The notes under the pieces were generated by a model. The model was not told the DNA's origin. It saw nothing but the letters and a program-made list of their open reading frames with translations, and did not search any database. A stretch of DNA of 59,284 nt, filler included. It is 2 parts of 2 records of this genome, joined end to end, with 100 filler letters (N's around TTAATTAATTAA, not from the genome) between each part and the next. Parts side by side here need not be neighbours in the genome. Positions count along the whole stretch, not along the records: positions 31,886 to 59,284 come from SRR20825006_1297; 1 more part is not named here. One strand, given 5' to 3'. Shown here in pieces: positions 31,786-34,403 of the stretch (position 1 is its first letter; each line of letters opens with the position of its first letter). The position numbers were made by a program, and so were the translations under genes.

Positions 31786-31885
31786 NNNNNNNNNNNNNNN
31801 NNNNNNNNNNNNNNNNNNNNNNNNNNNNNTTAATTAATTAANNNNNNNNNNNNNNNNNNNNNNNNNNNNNNNNNNNNNNNNNNNN
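31786..31885. other. Artificial contig-joining linker
   Basis: 44 N + TTAATTAATTAA (stops in all six frames) + 44 N; composition and gene content change abruptly across it. Confidence 0.97.
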
Positions 31886-31954
31886 ACCAGTCTGGACGTG
31901 CAGTTTATTGAGAGTTTCGCTCTAGCGCACTGCCCTGAAAAACAGCTCGAAGGC

Positions 31955-32012
31955 GAGCAAGAGCGCGGCGAGGCGGACCACTCGGGTGGTCCGCCTCGCC
32001 GCGCTCTTGCTC
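31955..32012. repeat. 27-bp perfect inverted repeat (terminator or REP-like hairpin)
   Basis: GAGCAAGAGCGCGGCGAGGCGGACCAC-TCGG-GTGGTCCGCCTCGCCGCGCTCTTGCTC followed by TTTGTTT. Confidence 0.85.
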
Positions 32013-32025
32013 TTTGTTTGGATGC

Positions 32026-32484
32026 TTACCTGGCTGGCGCAGGCACCACCGCGAAGCTGATCAGCGGGACCCGCTTGCGATGGATCTCGAACCCGACCCA
32101 ACGCCGCGCATCCGCAGAGCGTTGGTCCAGGTGCTGCTCGATAGCAGCGAGGTCGATCACCTCGCCATCTTCAGGTGCTCTCGTCATCAACGTCGCGCGG
32201 AAGTGATCGGTGTCGGGGAATGGCTCGACATCGACCAGCGTCAGGTCCGCGATTTGTTCGTCGTCCTGCTCTCTGAGCCAGAAAACAAGCGCCTCTGTGA
32301 CTTGTGTTCGAAGTTGTGCTCGCTTGCGAAAGTGCGGCGAGGCGCGACCTGCTCGCTGCCTCTCTCGCCGCTTCTTGCTCTCGCGGTATTGCTCGCGAGG
32401 ATCGACGCCGTCGCCCTCGTGCAGCGTATCGCACACTTCACCGATGAGACGCAGCAGCGTCCCCTTTTCGTTCGAATTGTTCAC
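32026..32484 (-). CDS. RbfA-like (ribosome-binding factor A fold) paralogue
   Basis: R..QL..QV.EAL...D..IADLTLVDVEPFPD...R.WVGFEIHRKRVPLISF mirrors RbfA D.R...VT..V..S.D...LR.TP.L.F; N-terminal extension with C...GDGVDPRE. Confidence 0.7.
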   Translation of the reverse strand: MNNSNEKGTLLRLIGEVCDTLHEGDGVDPREQYRESKKRRERQRAGRASPHFRKRAQLRTQVTEALVFWLREQDDEQIADLTLVDVEPFPDTDHFRATLMTRAPEDGEVIDLAAIEQHLDQRSADARRWVGFEIHRKRVPLISFAVVPAPAR

Positions 32485-32517
32485 GTGGAAACTCCACTCG
32501 GAGGTTGGATCTTCTCT

Positions 32518-32550
32518 GGCGCTGAACTCTTTTGAAAAGAGTTCAGCGCC
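32518..32550. repeat. 16-bp perfect inverted repeat in the leader of the RbfA-like gene
   Basis: GGCGCTGAACTCTTTT-G-AAAAGAGTTCAGCGCC. Confidence 0.85.
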
Positions 32551-32610
32551 CGACAGGTCACAACTGGTGGAGCGCGGCCCTACTTGGCGTGAGGCGTCTT
32601 TATCACGACC

Positions 32611-32691
32611 TCATGCCAGGATGGCGTCGCGCGCCACCCTCATCGCAAGAGGGAGAGACGTGAAGTCGAATGCTGAGGTTGGAGTATGCAT
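32611..32691 (-). CDS. Putative 26-aa leader peptide (uORF) MHTPTSAFDFTSLPLAMRVARDAILA
   Basis: Manual translation; AAGGAGG SD 5 nt before ATG; lies upstream of the hairpins and the RbfA-like gene. Confidence 0.55.
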   Translation of the reverse strand: MHTPTSAFDFTSLPLAMRVARDAILA

Positions 32692-32833
32692 GATGGCCTC
32701 CTTGCCGTGGTCTTATCGCAGGTGTCACCGGGACATCGAGATATGCGGTAAACACGGCAGCGACGCGATTTATTCACAGGCAGCGGCGCACCTGTGGAAA
32801 ACCTCGCCAGCGGCTGGCTTTATGCACCGAAGC

Positions 32834-34159
32834 TTAGCTTCTGGTTTCGATAATAAGCGGGCCGGTTCCGAGCTCGTCTCCTTGCTGACCGAGTGAGATC
32901 GCGCGCTCCAGACGCGTCGTCGATCTCTTGAAGGAGGCCTCGTCTCGGTAGTGCATCGTCGCGATGGTTTCGCCCTTCTCGACGGCGTCGCCCACCTTCT
33001 TATGGAAGACAAGCCCGACCGCTGGATCGATCTCGTCCTCCTTGGTGCGTCGACCTGCGCCCAGATCGAGCGCGGCCATGCCGACCTCCGCGGTGTCCAT
33101 GGCAGTGATAATGCCAGCCTCAGATGCCGCGAAGGGAGCCTTGTGGGGCGCCTGAGCGAGCACCTCTTCGGGTGTGTCACAGACGCGAGGATCACCGCCG
33201 TGAACCTCGACGAGGTGGCGAAAGCGCGCGAGGGCGCGACCGCTGGCGAGGATCTCGCGAAGGCGTGCCTTGCAGCCATCGAAGTCTTCGCCAGGTTCGA
33301 ATGCATCGGCGAGCAAGACCATGTTGGCGACGAGCTCGATGGTGACATCGATCAGATCTTGTGGACCTTCTCCTGCGCGCATCACCTCGACGCACTCCTG
33401 GACCTCGAGCGCGTTGCCCACGGCCCAACCGAGCGGTTGATTCATGTCCGTGAGCACGGCGCGCACGGGCTTGTCGAGCTGTGCGCCGATCTCGATCATC
33501 GTGTCCGCCAGGACGCGAGCTTCATCCACATTGCGCATGAAGGCGCCCGAGCCGACCTTGATATCGAGGACCAAGGCGTCGATCCCCTCGGCCATCTTCT
33601 TGCTCATGATCGAGCTGGCGATGAGCGGGATGCAACGCACCGTCCCGGTCACATCGCGCAACGCGTAGAGCTTCTTATCTGCGGGCGCGATCTGGTCCGT
33701 CTGCCTGATCAGGCCGCACTCGTGCTCTTCGATAAGCTGGCGAAAGCGATCCGTGGAGGCGTCCATGTCGAAGCCAGGGATGCTGGTGAGCTTGTCGACG
33801 GTTCCGCCTGTATGCCCCAAGCCTCGGCCAGAAATCATGGGGACCTTGAGGCCCGCCTCGACCGCGAGCGGTGCGAGGATCAAGGACACCTTATCGCCCA
33901 CACCACCCGTGGAGTGCTTGTCGATCTTGGCGCCGGGAATGTCCGAAAAGTCGAGGACCTGACCTGACCGAAGCATCGCCATCGTCCACGTGCCCAGCTC
34001 TCGGGCAGTCATTCCGTTAAAGAACACCGCCATCAGGAACGCCGACATTTGATAATCGGTGACGTCCCCGTGTGTGTATCCCTTGACGAGTTGTTGCAAC
34101 GCCTCGTCGCTGAGTTCCTGGCCATCCCTCTTGGCGCGGATGATCTCCACCGTTTGCAT
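32834..34159 (-). CDS. pdp: Pyrimidine-nucleoside/thymidine phosphorylase
   Basis: DYQMSA, DKHSTGGVGDK, SGRGLGHTGGT, YALRDVT and SIMSKK motifs; start MQTVEIIRAKRDG. Confidence 0.95.
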   Translation of the reverse strand: MQTVEIIRAKRDGQELSDEALQQLVKGYTHGDVTDYQMSAFLMAVFFNGMTARELGTWTMAMLRSGQVLDFSDIPGAKIDKHSTGGVGDKVSLILAPLAVEAGLKVPMISGRGLGHTGGTVDKLTSIPGFDMDASTDRFRQLIEEHECGLIRQTDQIAPADKKLYALRDVTGTVRCIPLIASSIMSKKMAEGIDALVLDIKVGSGAFMRNVDEARVLADTMIEIGAQLDKPVRAVLTDMNQPLGWAVGNALEVQECVEVMRAGEGPQDLIDVTIELVANMVLLADAFEPGEDFDGCKARLREILASGRALARFRHLVEVHGGDPRVCDTPEEVLAQAPHKAPFAASEAGIITAMDTAEVGMAALDLGAGRRTKEDEIDPAVGLVFHKKVGDAVEKGETIATMHYRDEASFKRSTTRLERAISLGQQGDELGTGPLIIETRS

Positions 34160-34403
34160 TCGCTCCTCTCCTTGGAGGTGATCCACGGGCCGCGCAACAT
34201 CTTCATTCCGGTGTGCGACCACTGCTTGAAATCGACGCGCATTTAGAGTTCGCCGCGCCGCAAAAGAAGACCCTAGCACGAGGGGACCCACAAGCGAAGA
34301 ATCATGCGGCGAGAGCGCGAGGTCCAAGGAACATTCTCGCCGCAGAAGTGTCTCCTGATCGAATGCCTCCCTCCCCTCGATCTCACTGGCTGCTGGAAGG
34401 ACG

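Follow-up and report, generated by a model that had tools for sequence, protein, structure and literature searches.

RbfA is usually regarded as a single-copy assembly factor embedded in an operon, canonical rbfA standing in the order nusA-infB-rbfA-truB. What, then, is a second gene of this kind doing on its own, behind a leader that carries a short reading frame? The question is raised by a window of 59,284 nucleotides (nt), the whole stretch of DNA analysed here, whose minus strand carries a gene that we call rbfA2; the source organism is a marine myxobacterium. We find that rbfA2 belongs to a separate, N-extended clade of RbfA that coexists with canonical rbfA in Myxococcota, and that the upstream open reading frame (uORF) in its leader is conserved as a feature, in its position and in the strength of its Shine-Dalgarno (SD) sequence, and not as a sequence. 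Modelled RNA structures point to a translational switch in which a ribosome occupying the uORF would unmask the start of rbfA2, a proposal to which we give an even chance. The novelty lies in the combination: translational control by a leader reading frame is of a known kind, and the clade of RbfA on which it would act is previously undescribed. We found no account of a second RbfA with a leader reading frame in the published literature, most subscription journals being outside the scope of the search, which accords with the first-pass annotation of the window, to which no description of the system was known.

The gene and the elements of its leader are listed here from 5' to 3'.

32748..32755, minus strand: box GUGUUUAC, predicted partner of the start region GUGAACA (helix P0; 9 pairs, 1 compensatory)
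32697..32703, minus strand: SD sequence AAGGAGG of the uORF, 5 nt before its ATG, read directly in the sequence; AGGAGG is invariant in three lineages
32611..32691, minus strand: uORF of 26 codons and a TGA, with product MHTPTSAFDFTSLPLAMRVARDAILA; 26, 26 and 29 codons in the three lineages
32646..32658, minus strand: pyrimidine tract UCUCUCCCUCUUG, codons 12-16 of the uORF; invariant columns, in the loop of a covarying stem
32623..32638, minus strand: seg1, the 5' strand of helix P2 as predicted by RNAalifold, codons 18-23 of the uORF
32586..32617, minus strand: predicted hairpin whose 5' arm includes the stop codon of the uORF (helix 6; 75% paired, 3 compensatory pairs)
32566..32580, minus strand: seg2, the 3' strand of predicted helix P2, GGGCCGCGCUCCACC (14 pairs, 97.6% paired, 3 compensatory)
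32504..32564, minus strand: predicted helix P3, GUUGU (32564-32560) with CCAAC (32508-32504), around the palindrome (5 pairs, 1 changed on both sides)
32518..32550, minus strand: palindromic hairpin GGCGCTGAACTCTTTT-C-AAAAGAGTTCAGCGCC, 16+1+16, with no U-tract 3' of it
32500..32503, minus strand: anti-SD CUCC, predicted by RNAalifold to form helix P4 with the main SD across a GAGU loop (4 pairs, 100% paired, 0 changed on both sides)
32492..32495, minus strand: main SD GGAG, 7 nt before the GTG, invariant in three lineages and nearly always paired in the predicted ensemble
32026..32484, minus strand: rbfA2, coding for a divergent paralogue of RbfA fold with 152 residues; GTG start at 32484, TAA stop

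All the parts that the first-pass annotation had named are present in the minus-strand sequence: the SD, the 26-residue uORF, the spacer of 60 nt from its stop to the palindrome, the palindrome itself, the frame opened by GTG, and two ways of hiding the main SD, namely CUCC with GGAG and an alternative hairpin GUGGA-GUU-UCCAC. The arms of the palindrome are 16 nt long about one central base, so that the real stem would have some 14-15 base pairs (bp); a repeat search extends them to 30 nt with 80% complementarity (32504-32533 and 32535-32564).

What protein does the gene encode? Compared with the Pfam family RBFA (PF02033), its product scores 13.9 bits (E 0.068), under the cut-off of 34.7, and a scan of this protein against NCBIfam gives no match. 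An AlphaFold2 model based on an alignment of 28 sequences reaches a pLDDT (predicted local distance difference test) of 90.4, and has two N-terminal helices followed by an alpha-beta-beta-alpha-alpha-beta core. The structures that Foldseek places at ranks 1-14 are RbfA-family chains throughout, bacterial or mitochondrial (among them 1jos, with E 1.2e-4 and TMt 0.71, and 2dyj, with TMt 0.79); a profile of the clade searched against the PDB reaches RbfA structures at E 1.3e-5, and its top 7 entries are all RbfA. As modelled, the product carries the type-II KH fold of RbfA with two extra helices at its N-terminus, in agreement with the fold proposed at first pass.

The extra helices bear the motif C..L.E.DGVDPR, which is characteristic of the clade. 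A protein search returned three close homologues, with identities of 99, 81 and 70%, of which that at 81% comes from a Myxococcota metagenome-assembled genome (MAG), and ten further homologues at 32-37% identity; nine of these ten carry PF02033, and two of them, P0006 and P0010, are named RbfA by their source. Between the window protein and the ten homologues, which share the extra N-terminus, residues D25, G26, D28, P29 and R30 are invariant. The N-terminus C...GDGVDPRE that the first-pass annotation had singled out is indeed present, but other proteins have it too: it is the mark of a large clade that includes proteins annotated as RbfA from Planctomycetota-type MAGs.

In the available portion of the source (PMC8177701), the KH domain of RbfA contacts 16S residues G1530-A1536, adjoining the anti-SD, and in E. 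coli an A-x-G variant of the KH motif GXXG holds residues 1530-1536 together with Phe78. At the alignment columns of this site canonical Myxococcota proteins have SGF or AGF, other paralogues have GW, GK or GA, and the window clade has S-A-D-A; the A-x-G with an aromatic residue is absent from these columns in the window clade. On our preferred reading, the product would be a second 30S-binding factor of the RbfA family, with binding to the 30S as a prediction.

Is it truly a second copy? Each of the 11 Myxococcota genomes tested (G002; G303, G163, G214, G242, G357; G154, G184, G397, G249, G123) has a canonical RbfA, at 83-111 bits, and one of the window type, at 18-33 bits. The relative G002 has an 80% identical protein with the same leader and, elsewhere, a canonical RbfA at 111 bits, with a gene for a DHH phosphoesterase next to it and then truB. 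The window gene lies outside the nusA-infB-rbfA-truB cluster, its neighbours being deoA and a terminator. These results uphold the idea of a stand-alone second RbfA. The hidden Markov model of the clade separates the two types, the paralogues scoring 66-175 bits and the canonical copies 18-45 bits. Of 401 Myxococcota genomes sampled evenly, about 25 reach 59 bits or more with the clade profile; on the profile used for that sample, the canonical copy of G002 scores 49.7 bits. In a library of 1.84 billion proteins, 239 cluster representatives are found at E <= 1e-30; relaxing the limit to E <= 1e-10 gives 1735, canonical RbfAs included. These results point to a large unannotated sister clade of RbfA, which stands beside the canonical gene across Myxococcota. 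One 12-Mb genome, G411, has two N-extended RbfA-like genes on separate contigs (L035 and L036).

How general is the leader? We called a uORF strict when GGAGG or AGGAG is followed, after 4-9 nt, by an ATG and a frame of 7-30 codons, at most 300 nt upstream of the called start. Such a uORF is found in all three close lineages, in 9 of the 15 distant discovery loci, which were found with a narrow profile, and in 6 of 10 validation loci that were previously unseen, which makes 18 of 28; none of the four canonical-type loci has one. Two further discovery loci have GGAG, and the four failing validation loci have weaker SDs or GTG starts. By way of background, the 160,124 nt of the discovery loci have 5 such elements, a rate of 0.0094 per 300 nt (binomial 3e-15). 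From the uORF stop to the main start there are 97-138 nt in 11 of 13 loci, a spacer with GC-rich hairpins, and the composition of the uORF is also similar in 11 of 13 loci (C 0.32-0.44, G about 0.2).

The peptides do not share this regularity. They have 8-29 residues and are dissimilar, and their richness in Thr, Ser, Leu and Pro comes from the uORF RNA being rich in C and poor in G. A conserved arrest or sensor peptide was not found, lengths and sequences differing across loci, and inspection of the leader peptide by eye showed no arrest motif of the macrolide type +x+. In a distant lineage, the region upstream of the paralogue in L044 contains a 7-codon frame that lacks an SD, ATG CTC CGT TCT CTC CCA CTC TGA (MLRSLPL); its pyrimidine tract is almost that of the window uORF, with which it also shares the residues SLPL.

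A closer look at conservation comes from the alignment of five loci of three lineages (the window with L005; L003 with L006; and L007). In all three lineages are kept the AGGAGG, the ATG and the open frame, the tract UCUCUCCCUCUUG, a block AGGGCC..GCUCC, CAAC(C/U)UCC..GUGGAG and CGUGAAC; the 5' half of the uORF has strongly diverged, and is uniformly poor in G. RNAalifold folds the three lineages with 66 pairs, 89.4% of the cells being paired, and 20 pairs have changes on both sides, to be compared with 9.1 +/- 2.1 in shuffles (0 of 500) and with 2-4 when the partners are slid. Helix P2 (14 bp, 32638-32623 with 32580-32566) encloses the stop codon of the uORF, and in the stem under the pyrimidine tract (helix 4) four of six pairs are compensatory. 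A hairpin with the stop codon in it, comparable to that of the window, is present in L010. For the 296-nt leader the folding energy is -116.5 kcal/mol; shuffling gives -91.5 +/- 4.7, with 0 of 200 shuffles as good (z -5.33).

The perfect hairpin that the first-pass annotation had listed among the parts of its attenuator appears in another light here. Its site holds a hairpin in every one of the three lineages, with a wholly different sequence in each, and all four pairs of the corresponding helix 8 are changed on both sides. Since its sequence changes completely between lineages, it looks like a replaceable structural spacer inside a larger fold, and not like the switch.

Does the leader act through a terminator? 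A scan of the minus strand from the uORF to the gene (32485-32700) gave no terminator-like site, and there is no run of U after the leader hairpins in any of the three close lineages or in the 12 distant leaders that were inspected. Attenuation of the trp type was rejected for want of a U-tract. Since the leader has no intrinsic terminator, any attenuation would be translational; of the attenuator first proposed, the uORF and the structured leader are real, while a terminator-based mode and the 16-bp hairpin as switch are set aside. Better supported, by predicted structures, are two elements that the first-pass annotation did not have: long-range pairing between the uORF and the main ribosome-binding site (RBS), and the covarying helix at the 3' end of the uORF.

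In the window, both the minimum free energy structure and the centroid set ACGUGAA of the main start and GGAG of its SD opposite UUCACGU and CUCC of the uORF (codons 10-14); in the ensemble, the uORF tract takes up the SD with a probability of about 0.6, and the local CUCC with one of 0.36. We compared, in 19 leaders with 20 shuffles each, the pairing probability of the main RBS, taken from -15 to +3, with the initiation and coding region of the uORF, an ensemble test that replaced a test of duplex energies. The mean over the 19 loci is 0.46, against 0.25 with the uORF shuffled (Wilcoxon p 0.0017); at 8 of the 19 loci at most one of the 20 shuffles is as high, and in the window the probability is 0.61 against 0.06, with 0 of 20 as high. 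Some leaders with short uORFs (L019, L013 and L057) can pair codons 2-5 of the uORF with the main SD in perfect duplexes of 9-10 bp. When a ribosome is modelled on codons 4-13 of the window uORF, the accessibility of the SD goes from 0.01 to 0.26-0.29 and that of the start codon from 0.0 to 0.4-0.57; with the ribosome on codons 16-27 there is no such rise.

From these predictions the following mechanism can be proposed. The gene would be expressed from its own monocistronic mRNA, whose leader of about 270 nt would be a switch built around a short, efficiently initiated uORF. In the fold free of ribosomes, the main SD and start codon would be buried by the pyrimidine tract of the uORF and its neighbouring bases, by the local CUCC and possibly by the 5' box, this last partner (helix P0) requiring that transcription start upstream of GUGUUUAC. 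A ribosome over the first half of the uORF would cover this anti-RBS and free the start of rbfA2. Ahead of it, the GC-rich P2 and the stop-codon hairpin may form a roadblock that sets the dwell time: with the leading edge of the ribosome at the base of P2, its P site would be at about codons 13-14, over the anti-RBS tract. Expression would go up when ribosomes dwell, for example because cold, translation inhibitors or a slow elongation or termination hold them up, and would be low when they pass fast or fail to load. Temperature affects helix stability and ribosome speed alike, and this would fit the role of RbfA in cold shock. Induction by stalled translation, by antibiotics or by cold, already suggested at first pass, is what we would infer from this scheme; the role of the uORF:RBS pairing as the switch, obtained from thermodynamic prediction against controls, and the direction and signal of the response are likewise conditional on it.

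Contigs assembled from RNA libraries add a view of the region and of the population. Such contigs, from four libraries of four studies, cover the leader and the gene. In X16 a single 548-nt contig (32172-32724) extends from within the gene, of which it has the 5' two-thirds, over the hairpin and the entire uORF; a contig of X15 spans 32378-32722, and pieces from X14 and X18 reach 32835 and 32807. The contig ends at 32722 and 32724, and the parts left uncovered, cannot place the start of the transcript. In the uORF, population variants include the non-synonymous T3I, T11M and A16V, and synonymous ones at F10 and D22; the latter is 32626 C>U on the RNA strand, and its pair in P2 stays as G-U. 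At the loop and top of the palindromic hairpin (32529-32549), contigs of two studies have a 1-nt insertion, deletions of 2 and 3 nt, and two substitutions; since they differ there from the window, the apex is polymorphic in the population.

Several observations weigh against the proposed switch and against the picture of the clade on which it is built. Ten of the 28 loci have no strict uORF, and the main starts were called automatically, some of them, such as that of L053, being doubtful. The peptides are unconserved and have non-synonymous variants in the population, and thus give no sign of an arrest peptide. At the RNA-binding site A-x-G-F the window clade has neither the G nor the aromatic, and the canonical copy was counted in genomes of relatives, not in that of the window organism. 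The covariation statistics are weak, since they come from three lineages and from a structure predicted with the very alignment used for counting. Duplex energies taken alone are weak as well (mean z -0.63, with 5 of 19 under -1.64). In L007, the third close lineage, the RBS:uORF pairing is 0.16 against 0.24 in shuffles, 14 of 20 being as high, and thermodynamic prediction finds the pairing absent also from L034, L054, L049, L018 and L058. Masking the uORF shifts the predicted accessibility of the RBS without a consistent direction over 13 loci, and such ribosome-masking thermodynamics were not used to fix the sign of the regulation: in L003 the SD is paired at every placement of the ribosome, and in L007 placing the ribosome on seg1 lets seg2 close the SD, the CUCCAC core of seg2 being an alternative partner of the main SD in the ensembles of both these lineages. 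RNAalifold, for its part, favours P0, with the 5' box, for the start codon and the local CUCC of P4 for the SD. Finally, the RNA-library contigs carry no information on RNA ends, strand or level, and such libraries may contain DNA.

Could the uORF do something simpler? It might merely load ribosomes at a strong SD and melt the leader, a constitutive coupling free of stress sensing, any regulation being exerted at the palindrome over the likely promoter. The structured start of rbfA2, which initiates weakly, would then be translated in proportion to the uORF. The statistics of uORF:RBS pairing fit this explanation equally well, the peptides are unconserved, many uORFs have just 8-11 codons, and the promoter palindrome is invariant; yet it leaves unexplained both the covarying GC-rich P2 and stop-codon hairpin in the path of the ribosome and the conserved structured spacer of 97-138 nt, where a plain unstructured RBS would suffice, and we consider it rather unlikely. 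A more radical alternative denies that the uORF is translated at all, and sees a structured 5' untranslated region, acting on stability or as an RNA thermometer, with an SD-like purine run and an ATG placed by chance. In GC-rich DNA, frames of 26 codons are indeed no rarity; the peptide is unconserved, and RNA pairing accounts for much of the conservation. Against this, an SD and an ATG at optimal spacing recur in the 18 independent lineages out of 28, far from the background per 300 nt given above, and frame and length persist although the 5' halves have diverged greatly; there is very little chance indeed that the uORF is a mere accident.

Two other alternatives give the pyrimidine-rich RNA itself the leading part. 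RbfA2 might bind its own leader at pyrimidine-rich single strands similar to the 16S tail, and so repress its own translation, the uORF being accessory; candidate sites would be the invariant loop CUCUCCCUCUU and GAUCCAACCUCC just before the SD. Such mimicry would agree with the contact of the RbfA KH domain to G1530-A1536, in the part of PMC8177701 already cited, with a CU tract that is invariant at the nucleotide level, synonymous sites included, and shown as a loop on a covarying stem, and with GAU(C/U)CAACCUCC being kept in two of the three lineages. But every anti-SD resembles the 16S tail, so that the likeness is unspecific, L007 carries GAGACAACUUCC instead, and the clade is without the G and aromatic of the binding site. 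Because any anti-SD resembles the tail, and because L007 differs, the mimicry of GAUCCAACCUCC is kept as a rival only, and autogenous repression as a whole seems to us quite unlikely. The same RNA, rich in C and poor in G, could also be a loading site for Rho, masked by translation, which would control read-through into rbfA2. That composition in 11 of 13 uORFs, the very few G in the first 45 nt of that of the window, and the lack of an intrinsic terminator would suit Rho; the C-rich stretch is however short, about 45 nt, contigs bridge leader and gene in two of the four runs (those of X15 and X16), and a failure of translation would turn the gene off, odd behaviour for an assembly factor. We hold this to be very improbable. 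The translational switch controlled by occupancy of the uORF is the reading that we retain.

What would such a switch serve? In 3 of 23 Myxococcota loci, L044 (G242), L053 (G299) and L057 (G123), a gene for the RNA ligase RtcB lies directly 3' of the paralogue; stop and start overlap in L044 (ATGA) and in L057 (TGATG), and L053 has a gap of 10 nt between them. Read from the gene order, this arrangement suggests a translationally coupled operon. In the window lineage no RtcB gene stands beside rbfA2, which is followed by a terminator and, about 140 nt on, by the end of the contig, and none was found in G002. In L052 (G148), a gene for an HflX-type GTPase lies immediately upstream of the paralogue, with queA beyond a gene for a CoA-transferase. 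According to the portions available of PMC5416887, PMC9223846 and PMC13166195, RtcB rejoins the 3' fragment of 16S that MazF cuts off, and RtcB2-PrfH mends 16S cut by colicin E3; in the published literature, to the extent that its text was accessible, we found no account of a link between RtcB and RbfA. One may then conjecture that RbfA2 is the half that recognizes the ribosome in a stress-inducible system of 30S repair or quality control: the leader would sense dwelling or stalled ribosomes, the protein would hold the 16S 3' tail of damaged or immature 30S and present the cleaved 3' end to a coupled RtcB, as a KH counterpart of RtcB2-PrfH, with possible feedback through the tail-like tracts of the leader. 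We judge this unlikely as a whole; RbfA being known to hold the 16S 3' tail, a repair role for RbfA2 is a lead and not a finding. The tight rbfA2-rtcB operons offer a lead, open to testing, on the recognition of damaged 16S 3' ends for repair.

The surroundings of the gene are described by three more features.

32769..32799, minus strand: palindrome TTCCACAGG-N10-CCTGTGAA over a possible promoter; invariant in three lineages, with a variable spacer
32834..34162, minus strand, start approximate: deoA, the upstream gene, coding for thymidine / pyrimidine-nucleoside phosphorylase (NF004490, 555 bits)
31945..32012, minus strand: terminator of rbfA2, a hairpin with 27-nt arms followed by a small hairpin and a T-run, from the terminator scan and the repeat search

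The possible promoter, recognized by eye, consists of TCCACA, 18 nt and AATAAA at 32774-32769; a scan of the region with the sigma-70 consensus gave no promoter, and GAATAAA also occurs upstream of the G303 homologue. From its sequence, the palindrome TTCCACAGG-N10-CCTGTGAA looks like an operator for a dimeric regulator. A weak hairpin and TTTT stand 3' of the deoA stop. The gene deoA keeps its place in L003/L037 and in L005, and has a divergent orientation in L009/L038 (G303). On the other side of rbfA2, the hairpin at 31955-32012 is perfect and unusually long, with 27-nt arms and a 4-nt loop; a canonical terminator occupies the equivalent place in L003, and in G002 a convergent gene for a BRCT-domain protein lies downstream. 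A scan of the leader and of the downstream hairpins against Rfam gave only sub-threshold, miRNA-like matches, which were rejected as chance.

In the window itself an N linker at 31786-31885, with N runs around TTAATTAATTAA, separates two contigs. The left contig (31.8 kb, GC 54%) has genes for the delta and alpha subunits of ATP synthase; the right one (27.4 kb, GC 62%) carries the rbfA2 locus, and begins at 31886, close after the rbfA2 stop codon at 32026. The two halves may come from different organisms of one bin. Of the genomes compared, the nearest, G001 (42% of words), has a canonical RbfA and no match to the window protein; it probably relates to the left contig alone, and was not used as evidence.

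How does the system compare with those already known? With canonical RbfA (PF02033; E. coli, T. thermophilus, S. aureus and the mitochondrial RBFA), the rbfA2 product shares the type-II KH fold, homology at the level of profiles, and a C-terminal strand basic-V/I-P-x-L-x-F. It differs by about 50 additional N-terminal residues, with two helices and the motif DGVDPR, and by S-A-D-A in place of S/A-G-F, and its gene lies away from truB behind a uORF leader of its own. The RbfA proteins of Planctomycetota-type MAGs (P0004-P0013), one of which bears the NCBI name ribosome-binding factor A, from Isosphaeraceae, are nearer: at the identity given above they align over 83-88%, with the same N-terminus C..L.E.DGVDPR and the same clade profile. 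They pass Pfam RBFA in precomputed annotation, however, and the window protein fails its cut-off. The repair module RtcB2-PrfH is similar in that an RNA ligase is paired with a ribosome-binding protein, a likeness seen in the genes alone and at the 3 of 23 loci; the partner here is an RbfA-like KH protein and not a homologue of release factors.

The leader finds its closest parallel in the resistance genes cat, cmlA and erm, which are governed by translational attenuators with leader reading frames. There as here, a short upstream frame has its own SD and no terminator is involved; if the structures predicted for rbfA2 hold, its main SD would likewise lie in a structure that depends on the leader frame, and a held ribosome would be expected to free the start. 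But the pairing predicted for rbfA2 bridges a structured spacer of 100-140 nt, instead of forming an adjacent hairpin; its leader peptides are unconserved and have no known arrest motif; and the regulated gene is a paralogue of a ribosome-assembly factor, not a resistance enzyme. The conservation of the leader frame as a feature of the clade suggests that bacteria may regulate a 30S-binding factor by reading the traffic of ribosomes on its own mRNA. If that is true, long-range attenuation of the erm and cat type would here serve the homeostasis of the ribosome, and not resistance to drugs.

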